A stretch of DNA of 64,000 bases. Origin: a virus. Each line of letters opens with the position of its first letter. Within the stretch, counting starts at the first letter, position 1. Shown here piece after piece: positions 11,443 to 64,000 of the stretch. The stretch lies in IMG/VR virus record IMGVR_UViG_3300046715_000149, positions 2,493-66,492 of that record; one strand, written 5' to 3'. The notes below the pieces were generated by a model. The model had not been told where the DNA came from. It saw only the letters and a list, made by a program, of their open reading frames with translations, and ran no database searches. A program made the position numbers and the translations under genes.

Positions 11443-11682
11443 ATGAAGAAGAATTTTCGGTGCACCGACGATGCCGCGTGGGGGGCGGGACTCGCCAAGG
11501 CGGAGGCGATGCGGCGCGCGGGCTACGACATCGACATGACCAGCGTGCTCAACACGGCCGTGCGGCAGTTCGCCGACGAGACGCCCGAGGCGAGCGCGGC
11601 GCGGTTCGGACTGGTCAAGGGCGAGAAGCCGGTGGCCATCTACCGCAAGCCGCTGGCCCGGACCGAGCCGGTCGGCCGGTGA
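11443..11682 (+). CDS. ribbon-helix-helix DNA-binding protein
   Basis: MKKNFRCTDDAAW...AKAE...DMTSVLNTAVRQF fits the RHH strand-helix-helix pattern; SD AAGGGGAG. Confidence 0.65.
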   Translation: MKKNFRCTDDAAWGAGLAKAEAMRRAGYDIDMTSVLNTAVRQFADETPEASAARFGLVKGEKPVAIYRKPLARTEPVGR

Positions 11683-15631: not shown

Positions 15632-15853
15632 GTGGCCGAACAGATGGGACCCGACGACCTTGCCGACCACCTGGCTCAGTGCCGACAGGTGGACGCCGCC
15701 TTGGTTGGCGGCACGGGTGTGGACATGACCGAGACCGTTCAGATGTTGATTGCCGCCGGATGGACGTACAAGGGGACCGAATACGTAGCCGGGAAGCGGG
15801 TGCGATACCTCGCACCGCCGCCCCCGGAGGAGAACCGAGAGGAGAACCGATGA
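15632..15853 (+). CDS. hypothetical protein
   Basis: Fills the gap with coupled start and stop. Confidence 0.5.
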   Translation: MAEQMGPDDLADHLAQCRQVDAALVGGTGVDMTETVQMLIAAGWTYKGTEYVAGKRVRYLAPPPPEENREENR

Positions 15854-17016
15854 TCGAGGGAGAGGTCACCGCCAAGCCGCAGGTGTTCGCGGCGGCGGTC
15901 AAGTGGGCGGCGAAGTTCGCCGCGGGCAAACCGGCCGTGCCGATCCAGGGCGGGCTGCTGCTCACGGCCGACGGGTCGGGCAACCTGGCCATCGACAGCT
16001 TCGGCGAGGGCATCACCGCCCGGGCCGTCGTGCCGGTCGACGGCGAGGGCAAGGGGTCGACGATCGTGTCGGCGCGGCTGCTGGACCAGTTGGTCGCCAC
16101 GTTCGCCGACAAGCCGGTCACGCTGAGCGGGGACGACGAGACCGGCTTGGTCATCGTGGCCGGCCGGTGGACCGGCACGGTACCGGTGATGGGCGACGTC
16201 GGCGACTGGTCCGGCGTGCAGGACGGGATGCTGGTGCCGCCGCAGCAGATCGGCACCGTCAGTGGGCAGGCGTTCCACGACCTGATCGCCCGAGCGGCGG
16301 CGGCGACCGAGCACGACGCGGGCAAGCCGATCGCGTTGCAGTGCATCCACCTGACCTTCGGCGGGCGGACGGTCGTCGCGATGGCCAGCGACTCGCTGCG
16401 GGCCACCCGCGACGCGGCGCCGTTCGTCCGGACCGAGGAGTCCGAGATCCAGAACGCGCTCGTCACCGGACAGTGGATGGCCGACGTGGCGGCCGCGTTC
16501 ATCGGGCCGGACGACATCGCGGTCGGGCTCGGTCCCAACGTGCTCGCGCTGAGCTCGGCCACCCGATCGGTGGTCGTCCGGCAGATCGCCGAGCCGTGGC
16601 AGATGCGCGAGGTCATCGCGACGCTGCTCATCGACGAGCTCCCGCACGAGGTGCTGGTCAAGGTGTCCGACCTCATGCAGCCGATGAAGCGGGCCGTGCT
16701 CATGCGGGAGAAGGACGGGCCGATCGCCGCGGTGATGAGCACCGACCTGATCACTGTGCACGCCAAGGCCGACCAGATCCAGCAGAAGGGCTCGGAGGAG
16801 GTCGACGCCCAGTACCAAGGACCCGATCACACGCTGGCGTTCAACCCGAAGTACCTGGCCGACGCGCTCGGCTCGGCGCCGGGCGAGATCGTGCGGATCC
16901 GGTTCAACGACCAGGAGAAGCGGCCGGGCCGGCCCTGGCACGTCGTGCTGACCTCGGCCGACGACGAGGGCTCGCAGTGGCAGCACCTGCTCATGCCGCT
17001 GAAGCTGCGGGGCTGA
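15850..17016 (+). CDS. dnaN: DNA polymerase III beta sliding clamp homolog
   Basis: ~388 aa; KPAVPIQGGLLL, MASDSLR, LAFNPKYLADALGS, LLMPLKL. Confidence 0.85.
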   Translation: MIEGEVTAKPQVFAAAVKWAAKFAAGKPAVPIQGGLLLTADGSGNLAIDSFGEGITARAVVPVDGEGKGSTIVSARLLDQLVATFADKPVTLSGDDETGLVIVAGRWTGTVPVMGDVGDWSGVQDGMLVPPQQIGTVSGQAFHDLIARAAAATEHDAGKPIALQCIHLTFGGRTVVAMASDSLRATRDAAPFVRTEESEIQNALVTGQWMADVAAAFIGPDDIAVGLGPNVLALSSATRSVVVRQIAEPWQMREVIATLLIDELPHEVLVKVSDLMQPMKRAVLMREKDGPIAAVMSTDLITVHAKADQIQQKGSEEVDAQYQGPDHTLAFNPKYLADALGSAPGEIVRIRFNDQEKRPGRPWHVVLTSADDEGSQWQHLLMPLKLRG

Positions 17017-29337: not shown

Positions 29338-30303
29338 GTGTGGGATGATCCGGCGGCATGGGCGCTGGGCGCGGCGCTCGTGCTGGCACTGACCGTGCCG
29401 CCGCTGGTGATGATGGGACGAAGGATGTTCGGGAGACGAAAGCAGGAGACCATGTCCGACGAGAGCGTTACCGAGGTCTTGGCCGTACCGGCCGAGCCAG
29501 GCGAGCAGGACCCGCAGGCGATCGTCCGGGCCGAGGCGATGGCCGACGCGGCGACGACCGAGTCGTTCGGCGTGGTGCACGACGAGGAGCCGGCCAAGAT
29601 GCCGTACGCCGGTCCGGTCGTCGCCGACGAGGACGAGCGACGGTGGGCGTCCGAGGGCATCCCCGCGGCCACGACCGCCGCGATCCCGATCCGGCAGACG
29701 CCGTTCGCGCGGCTCGCGCCGGTTCCGCCTCAGCCGTTGATCAGCCAGTTCCGGACCGACTGCCAGGAATGCGGAGGGCGCGGCTTCATGCCCGGTATCA
29801 ACGACCTGCTCCAGGAGTCGGTAAGCCTGCTGGGCGACCAGGGCGATGAGGTCGTCCGGCTGTTCTACTCGGCCCTGCTGCGCGCCCACCCGCAGCTGAT
29901 GACCCTGTTCCCCGGCAATCCGACGCAGGGCGACTTCGGCTCGGACCACAAGGGCGCGGTCCAGCGTGACCGCCTGCTCAAGGCGCTGACCGCGCTGGCC
30001 GCCCTGTACGACCCGGGCGACGCGGAGAAGATGAAGCACCTCGATCAGGCGCTCGCCTCGTTCGGCCGGGCGCACGCGAGCTTCATCCGGCAGGACGGCA
30101 CGGTGCGCGGCGCCACTCTCGAGGAGTACGCCGCGGTGAAGGATGCGCTGTTCACCACGCTGGTGCGGGTCGCCGCCGGCAAGTGGAAGCCCGAGTACAC
30201 CGAGGCGTGGGGCCAGGCGTACGACTACGCCGCGGCGGCCATGCTCACCGAGCAGTTCCGTTCGGGCTTCACGGCGCCTCGTTTTCCGCGGGTCAGTTCA
30301 TGA
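29338..30303 (+). CDS. globin-domain protein (FHb/single-domain globin type) with N-terminal TM and CxxC
   Basis: LLQES...FYSALLRAHPQLMTLFP (TyrB10, PheCD1), QRDRLL (GlnE7), FGRAH (HisF8), YAAVKDALF..L, WKPE..EAW..AY. Confidence 0.85.
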   Translation: MWDDPAAWALGAALVLALTVPPLVMMGRRMFGRRKQETMSDESVTEVLAVPAEPGEQDPQAIVRAEAMADAATTESFGVVHDEEPAKMPYAGPVVADEDERRWASEGIPAATTAAIPIRQTPFARLAPVPPQPLISQFRTDCQECGGRGFMPGINDLLQESVSLLGDQGDEVVRLFYSALLRAHPQLMTLFPGNPTQGDFGSDHKGAVQRDRLLKALTALAALYDPGDAEKMKHLDQALASFGRAHASFIRQDGTVRGATLEEYAAVKDALFTTLVRVAAGKWKPEYTEAWGQAYDYAAAAMLTEQFRSGFTAPRFPRVSS

Positions 30304-31690: not shown

Positions 31691-32179
31691 ATGGGCAGCC
31701 AGACGCCACGCGACGTGACTCACCCGCCGGCCAGGCAGGCAGAGACGTACGAGAAGCGGCGCCGCGCGGCCGAGCTCCGGCGGGCCGGCTGGACGTGGGA
31801 TGCCGTTGCCGAAGAGGTCGGCTACTCCAGCAGAGGGTCGGCCCACGCAGCGGTCAAGGCTCTGCTCCAGGAACACCAGTCACTCGCCTACGACGAGATC
31901 GCCCTCTACCGGCAGGAGTCGCTGGACCGGCTGACCGACCTGCTCAAGGTGGCAATGAAGGGCGCGCTCGCGGGCGACGAGAAGATGATGCGCGAGGCGC
32001 GTCTGATCATAAGCCAGATCGGCGACCTCACCGGCGAGAAGGCTCCGCTCCAGGTGCAGATCGGGGAGAGCGATGTCGATCGACTTCTTCGGGAAGCTCT
32101 CGACGAGTTCCGACGCCGAACTGCTCAGCTTGATCGGAAAGCTGGAGCAGATCCAGGACGTGCAGCGCAAGACGGCTGA
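31691..32179 (+). CDS. terS: terminase small subunit (HTH)
   Basis: LRRAGWTWDAVAEEVGYSSRGSAH HTH; immediately upstream of TerL. Confidence 0.75.
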   Translation: MGSQTPRDVTHPPARQAETYEKRRRAAELRRAGWTWDAVAEEVGYSSRGSAHAAVKALLQEHQSLAYDEIALYRQESLDRLTDLLKVAMKGALAGDEKMMREARLIISQIGDLTGEKAPLQVQIGESDVDRLLREALDEFRRRTAQLDRKAGADPGRAAQDG

Positions 32180-33725
32180 GCTGTCCCGCTCGGAATTCCG
32201 GCAGCGCTACCCCACGCCCGGCGCTCTGGCCAAGGCGTACTTCGTCAAGACCAAGCAGACGCCTGCGCTGGACGCCATCGACGAGGCCCTGGTGGACCTG
32301 GCGGACGCCGCCGGCGCTTCGGGCCGGCAGATGATTTTCGTCCCGCCGCAGGAGGGCAAGTCGACCCGCGCGTCCTGCTGGTTCCCGCTCTGGCTGCTCG
32401 CGCAGGATCCGAGCCTGCGGATCGCGATCGTGGTCTACTCCGCCGAGAAGGCCGAGCGATGGGGCCGCTGGATCCGCCGCATGATCGAGGCGCATCCGGA
32501 GCTCGGCATCGCCCTGGCGCCGGACAGCCGCGCGGTCGACCGGTTCGAGACCACCGCGGGCGGCGTGGTTCTCTCGGTCGGCATCGACGGCGGCCTGACC
32601 TCCGAGGCGGTCGACCTGCTGATCATCGACGACCCGCTCAAGGGCCGCGCCGAGGCCGAGTCGTCCACCTACCGCAAGCGCTGCTGGGATTGGTGGGAGT
32701 CGAACGCCATGACCCGCGCGTCGGATCAGTTCCGCGTGGTGCTGATGATGACCCGCTGGCACTCCGACGACCTGGCCGGCCGACTGCTGGCCGAGGAGCC
32801 CGGCGAGTGGAACGTGCTGCGCATCCCCGCGGTGCGCGACGAGGCCTCGGCCCGCGTCCGGGGCAGCGACGGTGCGTCGGTGTTCCATCCGAACGGTGAG
32901 CTGATCAGCGTCCGCAACCGGCCCGCCGGGTGGTTTCTCGGGCTGAAGGCCAAGCGGTCGATGTACGTGTGGAATTCGATCTACATGCAGGTGCCGGTCG
33001 CGGCCGAGGGCAACCTGTTCGCCCGGTCGGACTTCCGCTACTGGTCGTTCATGCAGCCGGACCGCACCCGGCACGACGCGCTGCTCGGCGCTCAGATCAA
33101 CATTGAGGGCGTCCGCTTCTTCGTCGCGGACATGGTCCGGTTCATCACCGTCGACCTGGCGGCGAGCAAGAAGACCAGCGCGGACTACACGGTCGTCTCG
33201 GTGTGGGGGATCACCGGAAACGGACGGCTCGTGCTGCTGGACATGAAGCGCGCCCGCCTCGGCGAGGAAGAGCACTGGACGCTGGTCGCCCCGATGTGCA
33301 AGCGATGGGCGTGCCCCGACGTCTACGTCGAGAAGTCGTTCATCTCGTCCACGCTGGTCCGTGACGCCACTCAGCTGGGCTTGCGGATCCAGCCGGTCGC
33401 CCCGGACACCGACAAGATCACGCGCTCGATCCCGGCGGCCAACCGGGTCAAGGCCCACACCGTGCACTGGCCGGACTACGTGCCCTGGCGCGACGACTGG
33501 GAGGACGAGATCGCGGGCTTTCCGATGTGGGCGCACGACGACATGGCCGACACGCTCTTCTACGCCGGACGGATCGCCTCGGCCCACTGGACTCCGCCGC
33601 GCGACGTGTCCGATAACACCCGCGACCAGCGCGTGGCCCGCGCGTCCGAGGCCGCAGCCGAGCAGGCCTACCGCGCGAGCACCGGCATGAGCGGCGAGAT
33701 CGACCTCAGCCGGGCCCAGTGGTGA
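32073..33725 (+). CDS. terL: terminase large subunit
   Basis: PPQEGKS, LLIIDDP, MTRWHSDDLAGRL, VDLA, HDDMAD. Confidence 0.95.
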   Translation: MSIDFFGKLSTSSDAELLSLIGKLEQIQDVQRKTAELSRSEFRQRYPTPGALAKAYFVKTKQTPALDAIDEALVDLADAAGASGRQMIFVPPQEGKSTRASCWFPLWLLAQDPSLRIAIVVYSAEKAERWGRWIRRMIEAHPELGIALAPDSRAVDRFETTAGGVVLSVGIDGGLTSEAVDLLIIDDPLKGRAEAESSTYRKRCWDWWESNAMTRASDQFRVVLMMTRWHSDDLAGRLLAEEPGEWNVLRIPAVRDEASARVRGSDGASVFHPNGELISVRNRPAGWFLGLKAKRSMYVWNSIYMQVPVAAEGNLFARSDFRYWSFMQPDRTRHDALLGAQINIEGVRFFVADMVRFITVDLAASKKTSADYTVVSVWGITGNGRLVLLDMKRARLGEEEHWTLVAPMCKRWACPDVYVEKSFISSTLVRDATQLGLRIQPVAPDTDKITRSIPAANRVKAHTVHWPDYVPWRDDWEDEIAGFPMWAHDDMADTLFYAGRIASAHWTPPRDVSDNTRDQRVARASEAAAEQAYRASTGMSGEIDLSRAQW

Positions 33726-35002: not shown

Positions 35003-36328
35003 ATGTCGTTCACCGGAATTCCGCGCACACCGGAGGGCACGCTCGGCGCCCAGTACGACGCGCTGGCCATGGACCTACTCGAGAACGTGCCCGCGCTGAC
35101 CTTCCCGCTGTCGGTCCAGACCTACTCGCGGATGCGCACGGACCCGCAGATCAGCGCGGTGCTCAAGGCCTACACGTACCCGCTGCGCTCGGCGACCTAC
35201 GTGGTCAACCCGTCCGGCTGCCGCGACGAGGTCGTCCAGTTCGTCGCGGACCAGTGGGGCCTGCCGATCATGGGCGACGATGCAGGACCCGGTCCGGCCC
35301 GGCGCAAGGGCCTGCGCTGGGACGAGCACATCCGGCTCGCGCTGCTCATGCTGCCGTTCGGCTTCTCGCCGTTCGCGAAGTGGTTTGACGTGGGCGGTAC
35401 CCCGCTGCGCGCCCGGCTCGGCGGACTGTCCGAGCGGCTGCCGCAGACGATCAGCGACATCCGGGTCAACGACGACGGTTCGCTGCAGGGCATCATCCAG
35501 TACGGCGCCGAGGACATGATCCCCGTCCGCGACCTGCACTGGTACGCCCACGAGCGCGAGGGCTCGGCCTGGCAGGGCCGCTCGCTGATGCGTGAGGCGT
35601 ACGGGCCATGGCTGCTCAAGCACGAGATGTGGCGCGTCATGGGTCAGTCGTCGCGCCGATTCGGCATGGGCGTGCCGACCGTGACCGCGCCGCCCGGTTC
35701 ACCGCCGGCCGACGTGACCGCGGCCGCCGACATCGCTGCCGGCTACCGCGCGGGCGACCAGTCCGGCATCGGCCTGCCCGACGGCTTCAAGTTCGACCTG
35801 ACCGGCCTGTCCGGCTCGGTGCCCGACACGAAGGCGTTCGTCGAGTACCTGGACGCGCAGATCGCGACCAGCGTGCTCGCCGAGATCCTGAACCTGGACA
35901 CCGCGAGCACCGGCAACCGCGCGCTCGGCGAGACCGTGATCGGCCTGCTGCAGATGTCCTGGTCAGCCACCGCGAAGGAGATCACCGGTCCGGCCACCGA
36001 CCTGAGCATCGAGATGGTCGACATCAACTTCGGCGAGGACGAGCCCGCCCCGCAGATCATGTGCACGGACGTCACCCGCCCGGAGCTGACCAGCGAGGCC
36101 ATCGCCGCGCTCGTCTCGGCCAAGGCGCTGACCGCGGACATCGGCCTCGAGAACGAGGTCCGGCTGCGCTATGGCCTGCCCCCGATCACCGACGCCGACC
36201 GCACGGCCGCCATGCCGCAGCCGGTCGTTCCGCCCGCCCCGGCCAACCCGCCGGCCACCGACCCGAACGCGCCACCTGCTCCGGCATCGAAGACCGCCCA
36301 GCCCGCAGGAGCGTCGGCCGGTGGCTGA
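35003..36328 (+). CDS. portal protein (Mu gp29/DUF935-like)
   Basis: MRTDPQISAVL, FGFSPF, GRSLMR..Y..WLLK, RFGMGVP, GNRALG. Confidence 0.9.
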   Translation: MSFTGIPRTPEGTLGAQYDALAMDLLENVPALTFPLSVQTYSRMRTDPQISAVLKAYTYPLRSATYVVNPSGCRDEVVQFVADQWGLPIMGDDAGPGPARRKGLRWDEHIRLALLMLPFGFSPFAKWFDVGGTPLRARLGGLSERLPQTISDIRVNDDGSLQGIIQYGAEDMIPVRDLHWYAHEREGSAWQGRSLMREAYGPWLLKHEMWRVMGQSSRRFGMGVPTVTAPPGSPPADVTAAADIAAGYRAGDQSGIGLPDGFKFDLTGLSGSVPDTKAFVEYLDAQIATSVLAEILNLDTASTGNRALGETVIGLLQMSWSATAKEITGPATDLSIEMVDINFGEDEPAPQIMCTDVTRPELTSEAIAALVSAKALTADIGLENEVRLRYGLPPITDADRTAAMPQPVVPPAPANPPATDPNAPPAPASKTAQPAGASAGG

Positions 36329-39044: not shown

Positions 39045-39974
39045 ATGGCCATCACCTACCCGCCCACGGTTCCGACCCTCTCGGGCGACGTCCTCACCAT
39101 CTCGCGGTTCCTCAACACCCCGACCGCCGTGGCCCGCCGGCTGCGCACGATCGCTGAGAACCGCTTCATCGCCGACGTGCTGCTGTCCGGGCGCGTCGAG
39201 GGCTCCTCGATCCTGTACGAGACCGACGAGTCCATCTACACCTCCCGCGCCCCCGAGGTCGTCACGCCGGGCGGGCAATACCCGCGCTCGGTGGCGCCGA
39301 CCGGCACGGCCGCCGTGGCCAACCCGGTCAAGTGGGGCCAGGAGGTGCCGATCACCGACGAGGAGATCGGCCGCTTCCGCGGCGACGCCGTGGAGCGCAA
39401 CCTGCAGAAGATCGTGAACTACCTCGTGTTCACCGTCGACACGACCGCGCTCGCGGTCATCGCCGCCGGTGTCACCGCGTCGGTCGCCGCGCTGGTCGCC
39501 TGGAACACCCTGGCCACCGCCAACCCCGTGCTCGACCTGCTGCGGGCCAAGGCCACGATCCGCGCCACGAACAAGGGCTACGACCCGGACACCGTGGCGT
39601 GCGACGACTTCGCGTACGCCTACATCATCGGCAACTTCAACGTGCTGGCGACGATGGCTCGCGAGAACGGCCAGACCGCCAGCATCACCGGCAACGTGGT
39701 CGAGATCGCCGGACTGCGCATCCTGCCGACGCCGAACCTGCCTACCGCGGGCACGGCCATCGTCGTCGACTCGCGGGTTCTGGGCTCGCTCGGCTACGAG
39801 CGGATCCCGAGCCCGGAGTACTCGGGCGACCCGTCCACCGGCGTCGAGACGCAGTCCCGGCGCAATCCGGCCGGCAACGACGAGTGGCTGGTCCGCGGCC
39901 GCCGCCCGGTCGTCCCGTTCGTCCAGGAGCCCGGCGCCGGATGCAAGATTACCGGTATCGGCACCCTGACCTGA
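39045..39974 (+). CDS. major capsid protein
   Basis: 309 aa, synteny, EVVTPGGQYP, KWGQ..ITDE, VQEP.A. Confidence 0.88.
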   Translation: MAITYPPTVPTLSGDVLTISRFLNTPTAVARRLRTIAENRFIADVLLSGRVEGSSILYETDESIYTSRAPEVVTPGGQYPRSVAPTGTAAVANPVKWGQEVPITDEEIGRFRGDAVERNLQKIVNYLVFTVDTTALAVIAAGVTASVAALVAWNTLATANPVLDLLRAKATIRATNKGYDPDTVACDDFAYAYIIGNFNVLATMARENGQTASITGNVVEIAGLRILPTPNLPTAGTAIVVDSRVLGSLGYERIPSPEYSGDPSTGVETQSRRNPAGNDEWLVRGRRPVVPFVQEPGAGCKITGIGTLT

Positions 39975-49632: not shown

Positions 49633-50439
49633 CATCCAGATGAACGCCGGCGGCACGTGGCCGCCGCCGCCGTGGACCGGCATGCCGGACCAGCCGTCGG
49701 ACGGCCAGCCGTACTACACCACGCTTCCGCGCGATACGCCGATGGCCGATCCGACCTCGCGCGATGCGCAGGCCGCGGCCGAGGGGGTCGTGCTCGACCC
49801 GGACGGCGACTACCTCGATTTCTACGACGAGAAGTTCCGGCTGGCGGACAAGGTCGGGCTTGCGCCGATGATCCGGTTCGGCGCTGCTGCGAACCGCGGG
49901 CTCGACTCCGACGACATGGAAGGCCTGGCCGCGATGCACTCGCTCATCCGGTCGGTCATCCACCGCCCGCCGCTGCTGGACGAGCACGGCCAGCAGCAAG
50001 TCGACGTCAACGGCAAGAAGCTGCGCGACGAGAAGGAGTGGAACCGCTTCCTCGACCTCGCCGAGGACGAGCTTGCCGACGGCGACGAGATCATGGACTT
50101 CGTCAACCGGGCGATGGAGATCATGGCCGCCCGCCCTACCAAGCCGCGAGAGCTCTCCTCGGGTGGATCGCGGACAACTTCGGCGAGTTCGAGGGCCGGC
50201 TCGTCCTCGCGGGCCATGCACCCCGATGTGGCTGGGCTGACGCCGGTCGCGGATCTGGGCCGCTAGACGACATGCCGCTGCGGGTGGCGCTCAATGCCGC
50301 CTACGCGATGTTGACCCAAGGTCTGGAAGCGGACCAGCGGCAGCAGATCGACGAGCAGATCTACGGGTGGGGCGAGATGAACAACCAGGCCAACCGTGTG
50401 CTTCGCATGGGCGTGGACGACAGCGGAGGTGAGAGCTGA
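49625..50439 (+). CDS. tail assembly chaperone (49625-50266) with probable -1 frameshift extension to 50439
   Basis: Position between major tail and TMP; the -1 frame is open and protein-like from ~50134 to the TMP start. Confidence 0.7.
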
Positions 50440-53400
50440 TGGTGGCTCTTGCCTCCGCGTTCGTTCGTGTCCGGCCACAGGTCGACCGGAACGAGTTCGC
50501 CAAGGCGGCCGAACAGGTCGGCCAGGATGCCGGGAAGGTTTACGGCGACGCCTTCGCCCGCGGGTCCGACGGCAAGCTGAGCGACTCTCGCAGCAAGATG
50601 GTCAAGGAGTCCGAGAAGGCGGCCGGGGACGCCGGGGGCAAGTCCGGGCGAGCGTTCGGCAAGAGCTTCGGCCGGGAGACGGACAAGTCGTCCGGCGCGT
50701 TCAGCAAGGCCATCGCGCTGATGGCGGCCAAGACGACGCTGTTCGCCGGGACGGCCGCGGCGGCTGCACCGGGCATCATCCACCTGACTGCCGCCCTCGC
50801 CCCCGCGGTCGGGGTGATCGCCGGGCTGCCCGCCGTGCTCGCCGCAGGCGGCGCGGCGATGGCCACGTTCAAGGTTGCCACGGGAGGGGTCGGCAAGGCG
50901 ATCACCGCCGGGCTGACCGGCACGGCCAAGCAGGCGCAGAAGGCGTTGGACGCGCTGCCGCCATCGGCGCAGCGGTTCACGAAGGTGATCGTCGGACTCA
51001 AGCCTAAGATCGATGCGCTGCGCCAGTCGGTGGCCGAGCGCTTCTTCCGGCCGCTGACTGATGACATCAAGCCGCTGGCCGACAAGTACTTCCCGCTGAT
51101 CAAGACGCAGATGTCCAACCTTGCCGGACCGCTGGGCGGACTGGCCGAACAGTTCACCAAGACCGCCCGGAGCAGTCGCGTGTTCTCGGCCGTGTCCAGC
51201 GTCTTCAAGAACACCCGCGTGTCGGTGATCCTGCTGCGCGGCGCGATCGACCCGCTCACCAAGGCGCTCGCCGCAGTGATCAGCGCGACCGCGGGAAAGC
51301 TGCCCGGTCTGGCGCAGGGCTTCGCCGACGGTGCGGCCAAGGTCGGCGTCTTCCTGCAGAAGGCCGCCGCGTCCGGTCAGATCAGCCAGTTCTTCCAGGC
51401 CGGGCTGACCACGCTCAAGCAGTTGGGCGGGATCGTCGTCAACGTCGGCTCGATCCTGCAGAGCGTGTTCTCTGCGGCGACCGCGACCGGCAACAACCTG
51501 CTCGGCAACCTCAAGGCGCTGACCAGCCAGGCGGCGGCCTTCCTCAAGAGCGTCCAGGGCTCGAGCGCGCTCGCCTCGCTGTTCGGCACCCTCGCCCAGT
51601 TCGGGCAGGCGCTGCGCACCTCGCTCGGCGCCGTGCTGCCCGCCATCGCGACGAGCATCCAGATCCTCGCCCCCGCCGTGGCCGGCCTGGCCGGCCCGTT
51701 CGCCCAGCTGATCGTCGCGGTGGCCCCGCTGCTGCCGATGTTCGCCGGGTGGGCCGCAGTCATCATCACGAAGCTGACACCGGCCATCACGACGCTATCG
51801 AAGTTCCTGGCCGAGCACACCGACGTGGTCAAGGCGGCTGCGACCGCCGTCGGTGCGTTCCTGGCCGTGCAGAAGCTGGCCGCGGCCGCCATCGCCATCC
51901 AGGCGGCGGGCGGCCTGCTCGCATACGCCAAGGGCCTGCAATTGGTCACCACACTCACGAAGATCTGGACCGGCGCGCAGGCTGCGCTCGACGTCGTGCT
52001 GAACGCCAACCCAATCGGCCTGGTCGTCGTCGCGATCGCCGCGCTGGTGGCCGGGATCGTGCTGGCCTACAAGCACTCCGAGACGTTCCGTAACATCGTG
52101 CAGGCGGTATGGGGCGCGATCAAGGTGGCGATCGGCGCGACCGTCGACTGGATCGTCAACGTCGCGTGGCCCGCGATCAAGAAGGCGTGGGACGCGATCG
52201 CGGCCGCCGGGCTGTGGCTCTGGCACAACGTGATCGAGCCGGTCTGGCACGGCATCCAGGCGGTCATCAGCTTCGTGGTCGCCGCCGTGAAGACCTACAT
52301 CGCGATCATCGTGGCCGAGTTCAAGTTCGTCGCTGGCATCGCGTTGTGGCTGTGGCACAACATCTTCGAGCCCGTGTTCAACGGGATCAAGAAGGTCGTC
52401 GAGATCTGGTGGCTGGCCACCGAGATCGTCTTCAAGCTGTTCGCGGACGTGACCCGAGTGATAGTCGGCGCGGCGGTCGGCTTCCTCAAGTCGGTGTTCA
52501 CCGCGGTGTTCGGCTTCATCAAAGACAAGGTGATCACGCCCTGGTGGACCACCATCCAGCTGATATTCAACGCCTTCCGGTCCTACGTGATCGGCCCCAT
52601 CGCCGCCGCAGCCGAATTCCTGCGCTCGCTGTTCGCCAGGATCTTCACGGCGATCGGCAACACCGTCATCGGCTGGTACCGCAACTACATCGCGCCGATC
52701 TTCACCGCGGTCCGCAACGCATGGAACACGCTGGCACTCGGCTTCTCCATCATCTACAACACAAAGATCAAGCCGGTGTTCGACGCGTTCGTCGGCTTCA
52801 TCAAGGGCACCGTGGTCAAGGGCTTCCAGACCGGCGTCTCGCTCATCTCCAAGGCATGGAGCGCCGTGCAGGCTGCGGCAAAGGCGCCCGTGACGTTCGT
52901 GGTCAACCACGTGATCAACCCGTTCATCAACGGCCTGAACAAGGCGGCGTCGATCGTCGGCGTGAAGGACCGTGTCGAGCCGATCAAGGGCTTCGCGACC
53001 GGCGGGCAGCTGCCCGCTTACGCGACCGGCGGCCGGATCGCCGGTGCGCCGTCGGCCGTCGACAACCGGCTGGCGCCGGCCACGATCCCCGGCGTCGGCG
53101 CGGTGAAGCTGGCCGGCGGCGAGTACGTGGTCAACGCGCAGGACACGGCCAAGGCGCTCCCGCTGCTCAAGTGGGTCAACGCCGGAATGAAGGGCGGAGC
53201 CGCGGGGATCTCCCGCTACCTCGGCCGGCCGCTCACCGAGTTCCCCGGTGACGGGTCGGAGGGCTGGGCGTTCGCCGATGGCGGGCTCGTCGGCTGGACC
53301 AAGGACGTGTGGGGCGCGCTGACCAATCCGGGCGCGACCATCCGCAAGCCGTTCGAGGCGTTGCTCAATCAGATCCCAGGCGTCGGCATGATCAAGGATT

Positions 53401-54122
53401 TCCTGATCGGCTCGGCCAAGAAGTTCCTCGGCTCGGCGATCGGCTGGATCACCGGCATCGGCGGTCCGGTCTCCGGGTCGCTCAACAACGTGCAGCGCGC
53501 CGTGCAGGCCCGGGCGTTCGTGCAGAACCAGGCGGGCAAGCCCTACATCTGGGCGTCGGCCGGACCGCGCGGCTACGACTGCTCCGGAATCGTCAGCGCG
53601 GCGTACAACATCCTCAAGGGCAACAACCCGTACAGCCATACGTTCTCCACCGAGAGCCTGCCCGGTCGGTGGTTCGACACCCGGCAGAAGCTCGGCACGC
53701 TGATGGCCGGCTGGTCGCACCCGGGCCAGAGTCCGGCGTCGGCGTCCGTCGGTCACATGGCCGGGCAGATCGCGGGCATGCCGTTCGAGTCGACCGGATC
53801 GTCCGGCGTCCGGATCGGCGCCCGGGCCCGCCGGTTCACGCAGTTCGCCAACACCGGTGCCGCGCGGGCGTCGGGCGGGCTCATCGATTTCCCGCCGGTC
53901 CGGCTGTTCGACAAGGGCGGGCTGTGGCCGTCCGGCACGCTCGGTGCCAACATGTCCGGACGCACCGAGTACGTGGACCCGACCGGCCGCGGCGGATCGC
54001 GGACCTACCAGATCACCATCAACGTCGCGGCCGGCGCGCATCCGGTCGAGGTGGGCCGGCAGGCGGTGATCGCGATCCAGGCGTTCGAGAACGCGAACGG
54101 CGCGGCCTGGCGGAAGCCGTGA
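50439..54122 (+). CDS. tape measure protein with C-terminal NlpC/P60 domain
   Basis: 1227 aa, ANPIGLVV, W/F periodic repeats, GKPYIW...GYDCSG...GHMA. Confidence 0.92.
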   Translation: MVALASAFVRVRPQVDRNEFAKAAEQVGQDAGKVYGDAFARGSDGKLSDSRSKMVKESEKAAGDAGGKSGRAFGKSFGRETDKSSGAFSKAIALMAAKTTLFAGTAAAAAPGIIHLTAALAPAVGVIAGLPAVLAAGGAAMATFKVATGGVGKAITAGLTGTAKQAQKALDALPPSAQRFTKVIVGLKPKIDALRQSVAERFFRPLTDDIKPLADKYFPLIKTQMSNLAGPLGGLAEQFTKTARSSRVFSAVSSVFKNTRVSVILLRGAIDPLTKALAAVISATAGKLPGLAQGFADGAAKVGVFLQKAAASGQISQFFQAGLTTLKQLGGIVVNVGSILQSVFSAATATGNNLLGNLKALTSQAAAFLKSVQGSSALASLFGTLAQFGQALRTSLGAVLPAIATSIQILAPAVAGLAGPFAQLIVAVAPLLPMFAGWAAVIITKLTPAITTLSKFLAEHTDVVKAAATAVGAFLAVQKLAAAAIAIQAAGGLLAYAKGLQLVTTLTKIWTGAQAALDVVLNANPIGLVVVAIAALVAGIVLAYKHSETFRNIVQAVWGAIKVAIGATVDWIVNVAWPAIKKAWDAIAAAGLWLWHNVIEPVWHGIQAVISFVVAAVKTYIAIIVAEFKFVAGIALWLWHNIFEPVFNGIKKVVEIWWLATEIVFKLFADVTRVIVGAAVGFLKSVFTAVFGFIKDKVITPWWTTIQLIFNAFRSYVIGPIAAAAEFLRSLFARIFTAIGNTVIGWYRNYIAPIFTAVRNAWNTLALGFSIIYNTKIKPVFDAFVGFIKGTVVKGFQTGVSLISKAWSAVQAAAKAPVTFVVNHVINPFINGLNKAASIVGVKDRVEPIKGFATGGQLPAYATGGRIAGAPSAVDNRLAPATIPGVGAVKLAGGEYVVNAQDTAKALPLLKWVNAGMKGGAAGISRYLGRPLTEFPGDGSEGWAFADGGLVGWTKDVWGALTNPGATIRKPFEALLNQIPGVGMIKDFLIGSAKKFLGSAIGWITGIGGPVSGSLNNVQRAVQARAFVQNQAGKPYIWASAGPRGYDCSGIVSAAYNILKGNNPYSHTFSTESLPGRWFDTRQKLGTLMAGWSHPGQSPASASVGHMAGQIAGMPFESTGSSGVRIGARARRFTQFANTGAARASGGLIDFPPVRLFDKGGLWPSGTLGANMSGRTEYVDPTGRGGSRTYQITINVAAGAHPVEVGRQAVIAIQAFENANGAAWRKP

Positions 54123-55411: not shown

Positions 55412-56017
55412 ATGCCATTCAAGGTCTTCACCAACGGGAGCGTGCTCCCGGACACCGACCTGAACGACTACCTGATGGAGCAAGCGGTCATCTCCTGCAC
55501 GTCGGGTACCCGGCCGGGCTCGCCGAACAACGGCATGACCATCTTCGAGACCGACACGAACCGGTACGCGTGCTATAGCACCTCGGCCGTTGCGTGGCTG
55601 TACTTCGGCCAGGTCATCACCGGCGGGTGGACCCCCACGCTGACCGCAGTGACGACCAACCCGACGCTCGGCTCCGGCGGCGGGCAGAACGGCCGGTTCA
55701 CGCTGTTCGGCGGGAAGTGGTGCACGCTGCGGTTCTCGATCGCCTTCGGCACGTCCGGCACCAACGCGGGCAGTGGGCAGTATCTGGTCGCGCTGCCGTT
55801 CACGGCGTCGTCCGCCATCACCGGCGGCGTCCCGAACACTGCGGGAGGTGTCGTGCGAGCCGGCGGGTCGGTCGCCACCGTGACGTGGTTCGCCTCGTCG
55901 GGATCGACCACGATGGCGGCGCTGACCACGTCGGGCAGCAACGTGGCCAGCGGCGCGCCGGGCGCGTGGGGCGTCAACGACTACCTCAGCGGGACGTTCA
56001 CGTACGAGATCGCCTAG
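55412..56017 (+). CDS. minor tail / fibre protein
   Basis: FKVFTNGSVL..DLNDYLM.QAV, WTPTLT, LSGTFTYE. Confidence 0.75.
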   Translation: MPFKVFTNGSVLPDTDLNDYLMEQAVISCTSGTRPGSPNNGMTIFETDTNRYACYSTSAVAWLYFGQVITGGWTPTLTAVTTNPTLGSGGGQNGRFTLFGGKWCTLRFSIAFGTSGTNAGSGQYLVALPFTASSAITGGVPNTAGGVVRAGGSVATVTWFASSGSTTMAALTTSGSNVASGAPGAWGVNDYLSGTFTYEIA

Positions 56018-56841
56018 CAGGCGGTGGCGCGCCAGGCCACGTAGGCGGCGGGCTTGCCGGTGATGAAGCCCGAGACCAGAAGCTTTCCGGAAGAATCCCG
56101 GTAGGTTGCCATGCGTGCCCACTCGCTGGCGTCGTCTCCGGCGGCCGGGTCCGCCCACGCGTAGACCCGCAGTCCGGCGCCGGTCCACTTGGTCAGCCGC
56201 GCGCCGGTGATCGCGTCGTGATGCTTGAGCAGGATGCTCGCGTGCGGGGTGATGTCCGCCGGGTCCGCGTCGCCGACCGACTGGTCCAGCGCGCGGGTGT
56301 AGCCGGGCAGCCGGACGGCCACCTGATCCAGGACGGCCGGGTCGAAGGACTCGAGCGCGGGCTTCGGGCCTCCGGCGCCGGCCTGGCTGGTGAGCGCGGC
56401 GATGAACATCGCCCACTGCGCCTCGGTCGGCATCACCTTCGGCTCGACGAACATGTAGGCCTTGTCCACGCTCTGGTCGTTCATGATCTCGGCGAGGGTC
56501 GGCACGGGCTGGCCGTCGGCGGTGCGCAGATTTGCGATTTGCGCAAATGTCAAATCCGCAACCGCGCCCGTTCCGTCCGTGGTCCGGTCGACCGTCTCGT
56601 CGTGCATGATGACCGGCACGTCGTCGGAGGTGAAGCGGACGTCGGTCTCCCAGAAGCCGACACCGGAGTTGCTCGCCTGGCGGAACGCGTTGCGGGTGTT
56701 CTCGACGTACCGCTCGGTCCCGCCGCGGTGCGCGACCGGTCCGGGCGTGGCGCACGTGGCCGCGCTCGCGGGAACGGCCGAGGCGGCGAGCACGAGCGGG
56801 ACGACGGCGGCCACCGCGAGCGGCCGGAGGATTCTCATCAT
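56014..56841 (-). CDS. secreted glycerophosphodiester phosphodiesterase (GDPD/GlpQ-like)
   Basis: Signal peptide ending ASA; AHRGG, ENT..AF, ETDVRFTSD..PVIMHD.TVDRTT, VPTL.E, EPK. Confidence 0.9.
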   Translation of the reverse strand: MMRILRPLAVAAVVPLVLAASAVPASAATCATPGPVAHRGGTERYVENTRNAFRQASNSGVGFWETDVRFTSDDVPVIMHDETVDRTTDGTGAVADLTFAQIANLRTADGQPVPTLAEIMNDQSVDKAYMFVEPKVMPTEAQWAMFIAALTSQAGAGGPKPALESFDPAVLDQVAVRLPGYTRALDQSVGDADPADITPHASILLKHHDAITGARLTKWTGAGLRVYAWADPAAGDDASEWARMATYRDSSGKLLVSGFITGKPAAYVAWRATAC

Positions 56842-56882
56842 GCCGTAAGCATGCACCAACGGCCCACTTAGGAGAGACCACC

Positions 56883-57869
56883 ATGTCGATCGAGGGAGTG
56901 GACTACGCCGACAGCCGGCCCAGCGCGAGCGCACTGAAAGCCGCCGGCAAGCACTTCGCCGTCAGGTACGGCGGACCAGGCCGGGCCAGCAAGCAGCTGA
57001 CGGCGAGCGAGGCAGATGCGCTTCGGGCGACAGGAATCGACATCGTGGCCAACGCCGAAGGTGCCGCCTCGGGATTCAAGGGGAAGGCGACAGGGCGAAC
57101 CTGGGCACAGCAGGCTCTCGATCACTTCGGCCCGCTGGGAATGCCGGAGGGCCGGCCGGTGTATTTCTCTGTCGACTGGGACGCCGGGTCTGCCGATTGG
57201 GCCGGTATCGACGCGGCGCTCTCCGGTGCTGCGGGGGTCCTCGGCGCCGGGCGGGTCGGCGTGTACGGCAGCTACGACACCGTCGCCCACTGCAAGCAGG
57301 CGGGATCGGCGTCGTGGTTCTGGCAGACCTACGCATGGAGCGGCGGCAAATGGCATCCGGCTGCCCACCTTCAGCAGTACAAGAACGGCGTGACCATCGG
57401 GGGAGCCGACTGCGACCTCGACCGCGCGATGACCGACGACTACGGACAATGGGGAGTGAGTGACGTGAGTGAAGCAGAGGTCACCAGCGCGCTGACCAAG
57501 TTCTTCTCGGTCGGCAGTCAGCCGGTCAGCAAGGGCGGGCTGCCCGAGTCGAAAATCGGCCACGATGCCAGCTCGCAGGGCGTGCCGGACACCATCTCCG
57601 GCGGCACGATCACCCTGTACGGGCTGATCGGGAAGATCGGGACGCAGGTGCTGCTCGCGCGCAAGGACCTCGCCGACCTGGCCGGTAGGGATCTGGTAGA
57701 TGAGGATGCTATCGCGGCGAGCGTGCTGATGGGGCTGACCCCCGAGCGCCTCGGCGCCGCAATCGTGGCCGCGGGGCTGACGCCGAGCGCACTGGTCGCC
57801 GCGATCCCGGACGACCTGGCCGAACAGGTGCTCGCGCTGCTGGGCGAGAAGCTCCGCCCGTCGCAGTGA
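56883..57869 (+). CDS. endolysin, DUF1906/GH25-like glycoside hydrolase
   Basis: GVDYA, FAVRY, VYFSVDWD, GVYG, WQTYAWS, DYGQW. Confidence 0.85.
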   Translation: MSIEGVDYADSRPSASALKAAGKHFAVRYGGPGRASKQLTASEADALRATGIDIVANAEGAASGFKGKATGRTWAQQALDHFGPLGMPEGRPVYFSVDWDAGSADWAGIDAALSGAAGVLGAGRVGVYGSYDTVAHCKQAGSASWFWQTYAWSGGKWHPAAHLQQYKNGVTIGGADCDLDRAMTDDYGQWGVSDVSEAEVTSALTKFFSVGSQPVSKGGLPESKIGHDASSQGVPDTISGGTITLYGLIGKIGTQVLLARKDLADLAGRDLVDEDAIAASVLMGLTPERLGAAIVAAGLTPSALVAAIPDDLAEQVLALLGEKLRPSQ

Positions 57870-61254: not shown

Positions 61255-62182
61255 TCAGCCCTCCTCCGTTCCGGCGGCGAGGCGGGCGTGGTGGTCGGCT
61301 GCGGGCAGCGGCAGCGTGCCGCTTCCCTCGCAGGGCACCTTGTGCCAGCGGCCGGGCTCCGAGCGCATGTGTTTGACGGTGAGTCCGGCCTTGGTCAGCT
61401 TGGGCCAGTCGCGGCAGGTCTGGCATTGGCCCCGCGTCTGGTCGGCCCAGTCGGGGCGCGCATCCGCTTGGTTGTTGAGGGTGGTCACGTGGTTTCTCCT
61501 GGCGTGAGGGCTTGGTGGTCGGCACGGCGGGCGGCGTGGTCAGTTCGTCAGCACCAGCCCGGGATGACCGAGGACCGCTCCCGGGTTCGGGCAGCGGGAG
61601 GGGACGACGGTGGCGATGTGGATGAGGATGTCCAACTGGGTTTTCAGGTCGCCGAACGTCCAGAAGAGCGCGTCGGCGTCCCGCCGAGCCTTTCCGAGAG
61701 CGGCCGAATATTCCTCGGCGTAACTGAACGCGCGGGCCGGCGGCATTCCCGCCGCGATGGCGGCATTCGCGAGGCGGTCGGCGATGTCGGCTGCCTCATT
61801 GTCGGCGACCCGTTGGAGCACCTCCCTGGCCTTTCGCTGAATGTCACGGACCGCTTCGGCCGTGGCCTCGAGGTCGTGCAGGAGTCGGATGGTGTCAGAT
61901 GGATTGTGCATGTTTCCCCAATTCCTCGGCGTGCTTCTCGGACAGTGCCTTGACCTTCTCGGCGGCCCGGCCGGCGGCGCGCAGGGCGTCCGCAAACTCG
62001 GTGAGGGTGCGTTCCGCCTCCTCCGCAACCTCGGCCGCACGCTCGGGCGGCATGCCGTGCTCGATCGCGGCGGCCACGGTGGCTTTGCGGCTTGCGGACA
62101 TCTCGTCTGCGGGCACCTCTGCGGACGCACGGACATCCGCAGACAGGTAGATGACCACCTCGATCAGCTCAAACAGATCCAT
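61255..62182 (-). other. three hypothetical ORFs (61255-61488, 61540-61911, 61895-62182)
   Basis: Coupled ORFs downstream of the TraA-like gene. Confidence 0.55.
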
Positions 62183-62190
62183 GGGGTTCC

Positions 62191-62553
62191 TCAGTCGAAG
62201 TCGAAGCCAGAACCACGGCCGCCAGAGCGCGGCGCGGCGGTGGCGTGGATGGTGTAGAAGCGCTCGTGCGACAGGCGGAAAGCCTTGCCCATCGCCTCGG
62301 CGGCGGCGGCACACTGGCCCATCGGCTTGGTCACCGAGCGGGCATAGGCCCGCAGATCGACGCGGGCCCACGCCAGCTTCTGCGCCCACTTGCTGCCGGT
62401 CTTGGGCGTGCGCAGGCGATGGTTCGTCTGCGCCGAGATGACCTGGAGCTTGGTGTAGATCTCGTTGCTCAGCGCGGACATGCGCCGCTCCAGGTCGTTG
62501 AACTCGGCCTTGTTCCTCGGTGCCACGAGCCACGGAAGCATCTCGTCAGCCAC
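62191..62553 (-). CDS. TraA-like plasmid transfer accessory protein
   Basis: Helical ~120 aa with ARSVTKPM...AAAAEAMGKAF...F and a terminal GFDFD, recalled as similar to Streptomyces TraA; adjacent to traB. Confidence 0.45.
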   Translation of the reverse strand: MADEMLPWLVAPRNKAEFNDLERRMSALSNEIYTKLQVISAQTNHRLRTPKTGSKWAQKLAWARVDLRAYARSVTKPMGQCAAAAEAMGKAFRLSHERFYTIHATAAPRSGGRGSGFDFD

Positions 62554-62587
62554 GATCGTCCCCTCTCGTTTGATCACGGTGCGTTGC

Positions 62588-62712
62588 CGTCAGGCGTGTG
62601 TCAGGTCACCTGTCAGGCCGGTGTCAGGGGGTGTCAGTGGATCTCTGACACCCTGGGATTCCCTTAAGGAAAAGAGGCGACCGGCGACCCCTGACACCTC
62701 CGTCGGTGTCAG
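62588..62712. repeat. clt-like array of (G)GTGTCAG(G) repeats
   Basis: Eight copies (six direct, two inverted) in 125 bp directly downstream of the traB stop. Confidence 0.75.
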
Positions 62713-62723
62713 CGGGTGTTTGA

Positions 62724-64000
62724 TCACTGGGAGTGATCGTCGCCGGAGGTCGGCCGGATGCGGTACTGACCCTTCCGGGGGTCGCCGTGCCGCTCGATGA
62801 TCACGCCGTCCTCGACCGAGCCGCCGTCCATCAGCACGCCGGTCAGCCAGTTCGACACCCACGGCCGGGAGCGCAGGCCGAGCTCGGCGAACACCTGGGC
62901 CACCGTGACGATCACGGTGCCGGGCACCTTCCGGTCGGCGTAGCGCGGATCGGCCAGCATCCGGATCAGGGTGGCGCGGCCCTCGGTCCGGGCCTGCTCG
63001 GCGCTGACCGCGGCCGGCTTGTCGTCCTCGGCGCTGTCGGCCAGCGGGTCGACGTCCATGTCCGGCGGCCGGAACTCGACGCGGGTGTCCATGCCCTTGA
63101 TCGCCTCGGTGTCGTCGTCGTTGCCGTACAGCTCGATGCCGTCGACCTCGGTCGTCTCCGCAACGTCCTGCTCGAACTCGGCCATCATCTCCTCCATCTC
63201 CTCGGGGTCGATCGCGTCCTCGTCGTCCGCAACCGGTTGTCGGTTCTGCGGGGCCTGCGGGCGCGGGTTGCGGGTTGCGGGGCGGGACTCGTTTGCGGAT
63301 TGCGGGGACAACATGCGGGTCCGCAAGTCCAGCGTCTTTGCGGACTGCTCGGCCCACCAGCCGTCGGTCGCCTCGGCCGAGCCGCGATCGAGGCGCGCCA
63401 TTCTCGGAGCGCTCGCCAGATTGCGGCGCAGCATCTCGGTCGTGTAGCGGTCGTTGAGCGTGTCGAAATCGATCGGGCGACCGTTCGCGTCATTCGGATC
63501 ACCGACGAGAAAGCGGGTCTTGAGCGCTATCGGGAACCGCGTCTCGTCGATTCCGGGGCCGATCATGTAGTGCTGGCCGGGCTTGCGCTGACCCCATTTG
63601 CCGGGCGAGGCGCCGGCCATCCGGACCTCGGTGTCGAGGATGAACTCCTCCTCGTCGGTCGAGTTCATGCCGTGCACGAACCACAGGCCGATGTTCGCGC
63701 GCAGGTCGGTCGGCATCGCCTTCCAGTCCGGGCGCTGCAGCGACCACCCCGAGTTGATGCCGAGCGACAGACCCTTGCTGGCGATGTGGCCGGCCAGACC
63801 GGCCAGCCGGCCCGAGGCGAGGATCGAGTCCGCCTCGCCGAAGTGGGCGGTCAGGAACGGCATGGGCTCCATCGGCACACGGCGGCCGCCGACGATCGCG
63901 GTCGGACGCCGGTCCGGGTCCGGGTCACAGCAGCGCGGCGACCACGCCGAGACAGCGAACCGGGCGAGCTGCTGCTGGCGGTAGATCATGATGGCCTTGA
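62724..64000 (-). CDS. traB: TraB-like FtsK/SpoIIIE conjugative DNA translocase (5' end outside window)
   Basis: SLQRP...MPTDLRAN, GASPGKWGQRKPG..Y..GPGIDE.R, acidic linker, C-terminal wHTH with RSRPWVS. Confidence 0.8.
   Translation of the reverse strand, partial: KAIMIYRQQQLARFAVSAWSPRCCDPDPDRRPTAIVGGRRVPMEPMPFLTAHFGEADSILASGRLAGLAGHIASKGLSLGINSGWSLQRPDWKAMPTDLRANIGLWFVHGMNSTDEEEFILDTEVRMAGASPGKWGQRKPGQHYMIGPGIDETRFPIALKTRFLVGDPNDANGRPIDFDTLNDRYTTEMLRRNLASAPRMARLDRGSAEATDGWWAEQSAKTLDLRTRMLSPQSANESRPATRNPRPQAPQNRQPVADDEDAIDPEEMEEMMAEFEQDVAETTEVDGIELYGNDDDTEAIKGMDTRVEFRPPDMDVDPLADSAEDDKPAAVSAEQARTEGRATLIRMLADPRYADRKVPGTVIVTVAQVFAELGLRSRPWVSNWLTGVLMDGGSVEDGVIIERHGDPRKGQYRIRPTSGDDHSQ

Follow-up and report, generated by a model that had tools for sequence, protein, structure and literature searches.

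The traB-like gene and its neighbors

Near the end of the window, the 64-kb stretch of DNA analyzed here (bases 2493-66492 of a 66,492-bp record; G+C 69%), lies a traB-like gene on the minus strand, followed in its own direction by a noncoding gap that carries an array of short repeats, and then by a gene to which no family could be assigned. The window holds the C-terminal 424 codons of traB and its stop (62724..63998) before the gene runs off its end; the N-terminal 410 codons lie beyond the junction of the circular record (L002:3-1232, minus strand). The two parts overlap by 42 residues inside a 127-bp terminal repeat, and the full protein comprises ~792 aa. An earlier reading of this DNA, made from the sequence alone (the sequence-only reading), had placed the array next to a traB, and matches to the NCBIfam model NF041214 (plasmid_TraB) bear this out: the neighboring gene encodes a TraB homologue, whose N-terminal half matches at E 7e-24 (84 bits) and C-terminal half at E 9.5e-36 (124 bits). 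The intact homologue P0005 (793 aa) comes from locus L003, where traB is 82-86% identical to that of the window, with 86% nucleotide identity over the C-terminal half; it aligns with positions 29-634 of the 639 in the model (E 1.8e-61). Because its score, 208.5 bits, does not reach the equivalog cut-off of 800 bits and lies far under it, the phage TraB is a distant homologue and not an equivalog. No Pfam family, FtsK_SpoIIIE included, was matched at E <= 1 by P0005, P0027, and P0081 or at E <= 0.1 by the window halves. In a tblastn search of plasmids, the C-terminal half matched 22 records, 20 of them from Streptomyces, at 30-39% identity over the ATPase part, the genes matched being mostly annotated traB; tblastn of each half against 50,697 records of cultured phages found nothing.

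The architecture is that expected of a TraB, namely N-terminal membrane segments, a Walker-type ATPase, and, according to a structural model, a C-terminal winged helix. Specifically, three hydrophobic peaks (19-residue window) fall within residues 31-125, the Walker A (G-x-x-R-x-GKT) and H-x-GEAD motifs show no variation among 26 homologues, and an acidic linker occupies about residues 610-700. An AlphaFold2 model of the last 108 residues (62727..63050, minus strand), built on a 69-row alignment, has a mean pLDDT of 79.9 and the order a1-b1-a2-a3-b2-b3. Its predicted recognition helix a3, PWVSNWLTGVLMD, preceded by RSR, is encoded at 62826..62864 (minus strand; model helix 63-75), and the nearly invariant positions of the C-terminus in 69 sequences are R62 and P63, together with G94 and Y96 in the wing. 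The best structure matches of the model were all winged-helix DNA-binding domains and were weak (Foldseek E >= 0.03; VIA-align Z <= 6.1); the FtsK gamma domain was absent among the matches listed (Foldseek pdb; VIA-align wide). The structure searches thus support the predicted fold class, winged helix, and nothing more specific.

Downstream of the array, the next gene (62191..62577, in the traB direction) matches no Pfam, NCBIfam, or PHROG family. Its likely true start is a GTG at 62553, 5 nt after GAGAGGGGA, which would give a protein of 120 aa. At the other end of traB, outside the window, a 69-aa HTH_17/MerR-like gene of the excisionase type (G000 record 1186-1395, L014:1189-1395, minus strand; E 2.9e-14) overlaps the traB start. 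By tblastn, homologues of this HTH_17 gene occur in 9 of 18 traB loci, all of the phage type, and were not found in plasmid-type loci, while the next gene has a homologue in 2 of the 18 other traB loci. TraB is the sole gene common to all array-bearing loci.

Layout and statistics of the repeat array

The array (62586..62712) contains eight CTGAC cores with the consensus CTGACACC in the traB direction; in window coordinates and traB orientation (minus strand) the cores lie at 62712, 62695, 62649, 62637, 62627, 62616, 62604, and 62593, and every repeat copy listed in the sequence-only reading was found in place. The noncoding gap that holds them spans 146 bases when measured from the traB stop (62724-62726) to 62577, where the next gene could begin at the earliest, or 171 bp to the likely start, so that the array adjoins the translocase gene, its first repeat lying 12 nt past the traB stop. 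From that stop onward, the order is inverted pair A (62691..62712), a 40-bp spacer, inverted pair B (62629..62653), and four more tandem copies. Pair A is composed of CTGACACC and GGTGTCAG around a 6-bp spacer, and pair B of GGGTGTCAG and CTGACACCC around a 7-bp spacer; the arms of both are perfect (62691-62698 and 62705-62712; 62629-62637 and 62645-62653). The last arm of pair B and the four further copies together form five tandem direct copies on the minus strand (62586..62637; cores 62637, 62627, 62616, 62604, and 62593). The spacing of "about 10-11 bp" previously given for these was close, the actual intervals being 10, 11, 12, and 11 bp (mean 11.0), or about one helical turn with ~2 bp of drift across the array. 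With eight cores, five of them in tandem, and two inverted pairs, the array has the composition by which clt repeats are recognized, several direct repeats of 7-9 bp that are often accompanied by inverted ones (PMC3583192, PMC4447253).

The 40-bp spacer between pairs A and B contains a T-rich run and an A+T-rich palindrome, CCTTAAGG (62662..62669), which stands between the two repeat clusters. Counterparts at the matching place are TATAGGGG, CTATGGGG, or CTTAGGGG in relatives, CCATAGG in locus L011, and, among plasmids, CCCTAGG in pWTY27 and CCTTAGG in pCQ3. The array as a whole is bracketed by the 10-mer GTGATCAAAC, of which there are just two exact copies in the 64 kb, 150 bp apart on the minus strand: the proximal copy (62718..62727) contains the traB stop TGA, and the distal copy (62568..62577) lies on the other side of the array. 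TGATCA is also found at the traB stop or ahead of the next gene in several relatives; across the window it is ~4-fold over-represented (39 copies against 10.3 in shuffles, a count reached by 0 of 100 shuffles).

The gap makes up 0.2% of the window yet has 8 of its 194 CTGAC pentamers, and the share rises with the length of the word: 7 of 13 CTGACA, 6 of 9 CTGACAC, and 5 of 7 exact CTGACACC, with just 2 exact 8-mers elsewhere. The Poisson tail for the clustering of CTGACAC in the gap is 2e-16, or ~1e-13 after correction for 438 windows, and a chance origin of the array was ruled out on these statistics. The whole-window count of GTGTCAG (9, against a shuffle mean of 10.1) is not above chance; because this total is ordinary, the signal is the clustering. 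In the closely related locus L003 all eight CTGAC cores are conserved, the differences being confined to spacers, one hairpin loop, and position 6 of the two weakest copies. The loop that differs is the 7-nt loop of pair B, AGATCCA in the window (62638-62644, traB direction) and TCGATCT in L003 (5364-5370). Reverse complementation of the window loop yields the L003 loop with one change, as if the loop had been flipped between the inverted arms.

Two perfect stems of 8-9 bp behind the traB stop could also be read as the terminator or terminators of traB, the other copies having no separate role. In a predicted RNA fold of the region (-66.1 kcal/mol, z = -2.86), pairs A and B form the first and second hairpins, one weak terminator-like match (62692-62673) is followed by TCTTTTCC, and L005 has a clear G+C-rich hairpin and then a T-rich run at the matching place; no Rfam RNA family was found at E <= 1 in 61500-63500. 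However, neither repeat hairpin has a U-run directly after it, the T-rich run beginning 14 nt past the first stem, and five tandem direct copies at helical spacing would be superfluous to termination. Moreover, the 8-mer of the hairpin arms recurs in the direct copies, and it is the word found within the footprint on plasmid pWTY27 described below. As an account of the whole array, termination therefore strikes us as very improbable. A terminator can nevertheless coexist with a clt, and that of traB may well be embedded in the array region.

Recurrence of the array and its counterpart on pWTY27

Homologues of the phage TraB were gathered by a word-indexed search (78 sequences) and by an exhaustive search (284 cluster representatives at E <= 0.001), and the loci collected were 6 distinct ones from IMG/VR, 2 from a genome collection, and 24 on metagenome contigs, together with pWTY27 and pCQ3. 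The only TraB relatives in the genome collection were from Rhizomonospora bruguierae (33% identity) and a Micromonosporaceae MAG. L003 and L019, which share their contigs with L004 and L009, respectively, and L029 (same as L030) were dropped as redundant, as was L027, whose protein C-terminus is the same as that of L037 and which has 90 nt downstream only; L020, L021, L025, and L033 were dropped since the gene runs off the locus. The 28 loci counted are the window, 8 on viral or genome contigs, 17 on metagenome contigs, pWTY27, and pCQ3. Between -20 and +220 of the traB stop, CTGAC[AG] is enriched (Poisson p < 1e-3) in 25 of these 28 nonredundant loci, and 24 have five copies or more; in the remainder of each locus its density is 0-5 per kb, and <2 except in two short metagenome loci. 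The 206 cores of the 25 loci give the pooled consensus CTGAC-A(74%)/G(21%)-C(60%)-C(61%). Spacings between copies on the same strand are 10-12 bp in 52 of 132 cases, with smaller groups near 20-23, 31-34, and 42-46 bp, a distribution that would fit copies presented on one face of the helix. The arrays extend to five phage relatives with TraB 39-42% identical to P0005 and to the Rhizomonospora locus (33%), all of which have an inverted group at the stop, a TATAGGGG, CTATGGGG, or CTTAGGGG center, and then tandem copies.

The repeated word also appears to follow the protein. In the cross-locus comparison, arrays of the CTGACA class accompany a helix that starts (S/K)R(P/A/S)(W/F). The three loci that lack this word are L011, L038, and L035. 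In L011 the helix is YTAAWLTKAL, and seven copies of GATTTCAC/GTGAAATC stand in the layout seen in the window, with an inverted pair, a CCATAGG center, and then tandem copies; L038, with the helix GRGPWWIYKAL, has three copies of another word. Across the loci, the repeat word thus looks specific to the cognate TraB winged helix, with two exceptions, L035 and L008. L035 has a helix of the CTGACA class yet no array within the 275 bp available downstream, and L008 shares its helix start with L007 yet has CCTGACGC as its word. Because of this difference between L008 and L007, the correspondence of helix to word is not one to one.

In plasmids, direct 8-bp repeats of clt regions are recognized by the cognate TraB, and helix a3 of its winged helix reads them, according to the available text of two papers (PMC4447253, PMC3583192). 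The closest experimental counterpart of the phage array is on pWTY27, for which the accessible part of Wang et al. (2012, PMC3583192) reports that transfer takes one tra gene and a clt of 175 bp, made up of 16 bp of the 3' end of the gene and the next 159 bp. This clt contains four 7-bp repeats, TGACACC (DC1); it is required in cis, and deletions cut transfer 10- to 1000-fold. Purified pWTY27 Tra protein shifts clt DNA specifically, and the DNase I footprint spans all four TGACACC (PMC3583192, as far as available). The gene concerned (NC_013667.2, Streptomyces sp. Y27) is called traA by Wang et al. (2012) and traB in RefSeq; its end at 9818 agrees with the coordinates of the paper, and we located the TGACACC repeats at the clt position in the record sequence. 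Since TGACACC lies within CTGACACC, the phage consensus contains the word that is bound in pWTY27. When the footprints at 9797-9849 and 9867-9897, taken from that paper, were mapped onto the plasmid sequence, the unprotected gap between them was CCCCTAGGCAGGAGCAG, in which the CCCTAGG element falls and to which the central CCTTAAGG of the phage array appears to correspond.

The likeness of the two sites goes beyond the word: each is sited at the 3' end of a translocase gene and in the following ~160 bp, and each mixes direct and inverted copies around a CCTAGG-like center. SRPWVS begins the predicted recognition helix in both proteins, with just 36% identity between the pWTY27 and phage TraBs over 120 residues of the ATPase part. 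There are also differences. pWTY27 is a 14-kb theta plasmid and not a 66-kb tailed phage; its TraB has 672 aa against ~792 aa in the phage, whose protein has a long acidic linker; and its clt starts within the gene and has a second repeat, CCCGCCC, unlike the phage array. In addition, binding and function are experimental for the pWTY27 clt, whereas the phage array has been compared with it by sequence.

The recurrence of the array across loci also bears on whether the repeats are instead operators of the promoter of the next leftward operon, bound not by TraB but by a regulator such as the HTH_17/MerR-like protein. The next gene follows the array directly, one copy is ~10-15 nt from the ribosome-binding site in the five ~40%-identity relatives and in L010 (33%), and CTGACA agrees with a -35 hexamer in five of six positions; the HTH_17 gene, for its part, overlaps the traB start and is conserved in nine phage-type loci. 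However, arrays persist in loci without a homologue of the HTH_17 gene (9 of 18) or of the downstream gene (16 of 18), pWTY27 included, a scan for consensus sigma-70-type promoters gave 0 sites in 62000-63200, and the word covaries with the TraB C-terminus. In pWTY27, moreover, it is the purified Tra protein that protects the repeats (PMC3583192, accessible part). That TraB alone is common to the array loci, and is the binder in pWTY27, is therefore the main argument against operators, which we consider improbable. Part of the conservation of the array may still serve expression, since the gap must also hold the traB terminator and the signals of the next gene, and since the relatives at 40% identity have a copy immediately beside the ribosome-binding site.

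Iteron-like copies at helical spacing around an A+T-rich center are also what would be expected if a plasmid-like prophage had its replication origin or partition site here, with Rep or a centromere-binding protein as the reader, and the failure to recognize an integrase makes an extrachromosomal prophage possible. However, neither Rep nor ParA or ParB was recognized in any scanned ORF, and the other strand carries the phage genes for helicase, primase, clamp, and ERF, at a distance of ~40-55 kb; GC skew was uninformative about an origin. In pWTY27, too, the replication iterons form a locus separate from clt, beside repAB (PMC3583192, in the text available). Because Rep and Par genes were not recognized and the replication block is distant, we hold an origin or partition site to be highly unlikely. 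A role in segregation exercised by TraB itself would belong to the explanation of the array as a clt, and not to this one.

Collectively, the adjoining TraB homologue, the identity of the word with the DC1 repeat of pWTY27, the recurrence in 25 of 28 loci, and the change of word in L011 and L038 support the clt proposed in the sequence-only reading. We consider it likely that the phage TraB, a putative membrane-anchored, FtsK-like translocase of double-stranded DNA, has its cognate cis-acting recognition site (clt) in this array, and TraB very probably binds it.

Possible function and the phage lineage

In the mechanism that we propose, the C-terminal winged helices of a TraB hexamer would read the 8-bp CTGACACC through helix a3 (RSR-PWVSNWL) and the wing. 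The inverted pair on the gene side and the five to six copies at intervals of roughly a helical turn, which flank the A+T-rich center, would recruit several such domains, and their recruitment would lead to assembly of the ring on phage DNA. The ATPase could then drive the circular double-stranded genome, without processing, across a septum or into an adjacent hypha, with spread of the phage genome free of virions, or segregation as a plasmid-like prophage, as possible outcomes. We infer binding by the phage TraB, the polarity of its loading, and the biological outcome, with homology and comparison as the grounds for binding and mobilization. For cell-to-cell or intramycelial transfer of phage DNA as the outcome, we put the chances at slightly below even, clearly lower than for binding itself.

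Several known systems share elements of this scheme. KOPS are scattered and polar across the whole chromosome, unlike the phage copies, which are clustered at one locus with 2 further exact 8-mers in 64 kb. FtsK gamma with KOPS and the proposed phage pair would work alike, in that a winged helix, a predicted one in the phage, terminates a hexameric pump for double-stranded DNA and reads an oriented 8-bp word, an analogy drawn in PMC4447253. A second system of this kind is that of pCQ3 (NC_013449.1), an 85.5-kb Streptomyces plasmid that has capsid and HK97 gp10 genes as well as traA and traB, and in which, as in the phage, CTGACA-type copies follow traB (6 in pCQ3 between -20 and +220). A third is pSVH1, whose TraB recognizes a word that differs from the phage word and whose replicon is of another type. 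[quoted passage not shown] As in the present phage, virion genes and tra/traB occur together in pCQ3 and in pZL12 (Zhong et al. 2010, accessible part), both of them Streptomyces plasmid-phages. The two differ from the phage in that their TraB is of the short plasmid type and preceded by traA; pZL12 further has ParAB, according to the part of its description that is available, whereas neither ParAB nor Rep or an integrase was recognized in the present phage lineage. Plasmid-phages with tra genes are thus already known in Streptomyces, and the array described here is in an uncultured phage lineage. Another short repeated word on a Streptomyces transfer element that is bound by an element-encoded protein is sps of pIJ101, the target of SpdA2, a 12-bp palindrome, CGTCACGTGACG, inside spdA that affects stability and not transfer (Thoma et al. 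2014, PMC4170104, available text). The SpdA/sps reading was rejected for the phage array because the sps word differs and is missing from the window at <2 mismatches, as well as from the array and its surroundings; 2-mismatch copies numbered 6 in the window against 12.0 by chance.

The replicon that carries the array is a complete tailed soil phage of 66.5 kb with terminal repeats, not a plasmid, a point absent from the sequence-only reading, as are the two perfect inverted pairs and the bracketing 10-mer. The record begins and ends with the same 127 bases and therefore maps as a circle or as a terminally redundant molecule. Pfam and PHROGs matches mark a large terminase (32073-33725), a Mu-type portal (35003-36328), a protease/scaffold fusion, the major capsid protein (39045-39974), a tail tube protein, and an endolysin (56883-57869), as well as a replication and recombination block with a RecE-like exonuclease, ERF, a helicase with a LAGLIDADG insert, a primase/polymerase, and a beta clamp; an ORF of 1227 aa without a family match stands at the tape-measure position (50439-54122). 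The terminase has its best match among the 50,697 cultured phage records at 36-37% identity (Brevibacterium, Glutamicibacter, and Arthrobacter phages). No integrase, ParAB, Rep, or repressor was recognized in the ~80 ORFs scanned, so that the phage may be either lytic or an extrachromosomal prophage; nor, among the larger ORFs, with some gaps outside the scans, was a TraA, Spd-like, TraR, integrase, ParAB, or Rep protein (Pfam, 66 + 11 + 4 ORFs; PHROGs, 54; NCBIfam, 17 + 4).

A search with the capsid protein yielded 25 IMG/VR loci, among which the six contigs of at least 65 kb (capsids 76-100% identical) coincide with the set of six traB-bearing contigs. Because all contigs of this size carry it, the TraB-array module has been kept throughout the 66-70-kb lineage, in which TraB diverges to ~40% identity while the capsid stays near 78%. 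TraB had no match in five shorter contigs with capsids 48-80% identical, in a search that ran without an internal positive control; two of the five, of 40-45 kb and with capsids 48-50% identical, are rated at least 90% complete. Tentatively, this lineage of tailed actinophages may retain, among its core functions, a TraB pump and the array at which it docks, and push replicating genomes through cross-walls or into neighboring mycelium without virions. Were that so, a second, capsid-free route of infection would have evolved from plasmid conjugation.

To our knowledge, clt is the only cis element needed by the one-protein, double-stranded DNA conjugation of actinomycetes, and the literature searched, which covered few subscription journals, yielded no paper on a phage-borne clt. 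The conservation of TraB and a well-supported clt across an uncultured lineage of complete tailed phages suggests that such phages may transfer their DNA particle-free from cell to cell or from one hyphal compartment to the next, or else segregate it by an FtsK-like motor. In soil actinomycetes, the boundary between phage and conjugative plasmid would then be less sharp. Furthermore, CTGACACC and the SRPW helix make a simple, testable pair for protein-DNA recognition that spans plasmids and phages.

Elsewhere in the window, four genes deserve mention. The phage encodes a DNA polymerase III beta sliding clamp (15679-17016, plus strand), with both the N- and C-terminal Pfam domains and a match to phrog_947. 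In an 894-aa protein of the helicase/primase type (11460-14144, plus strand), LAGLIDADG_3 matches at residues 352-395, and this position in the middle of the protein suggests an intein within the replicative helicase. A 321-aa ORF (29338-30303, plus strand) has a C-terminal globin domain (Pfam Globin, 4.6e-9) and a weak match to an NO-inducible flavohaemoprotein, which is unusual cargo for a phage. Finally, a GDPD glycerophosphodiester phosphodiesterase (56014-56934, minus strand; 7e-26) overlaps the start of the endolysin gene by ~50 bp on the opposite strand, and also matches PHROG tail-fibre and phosphodiesterase families.
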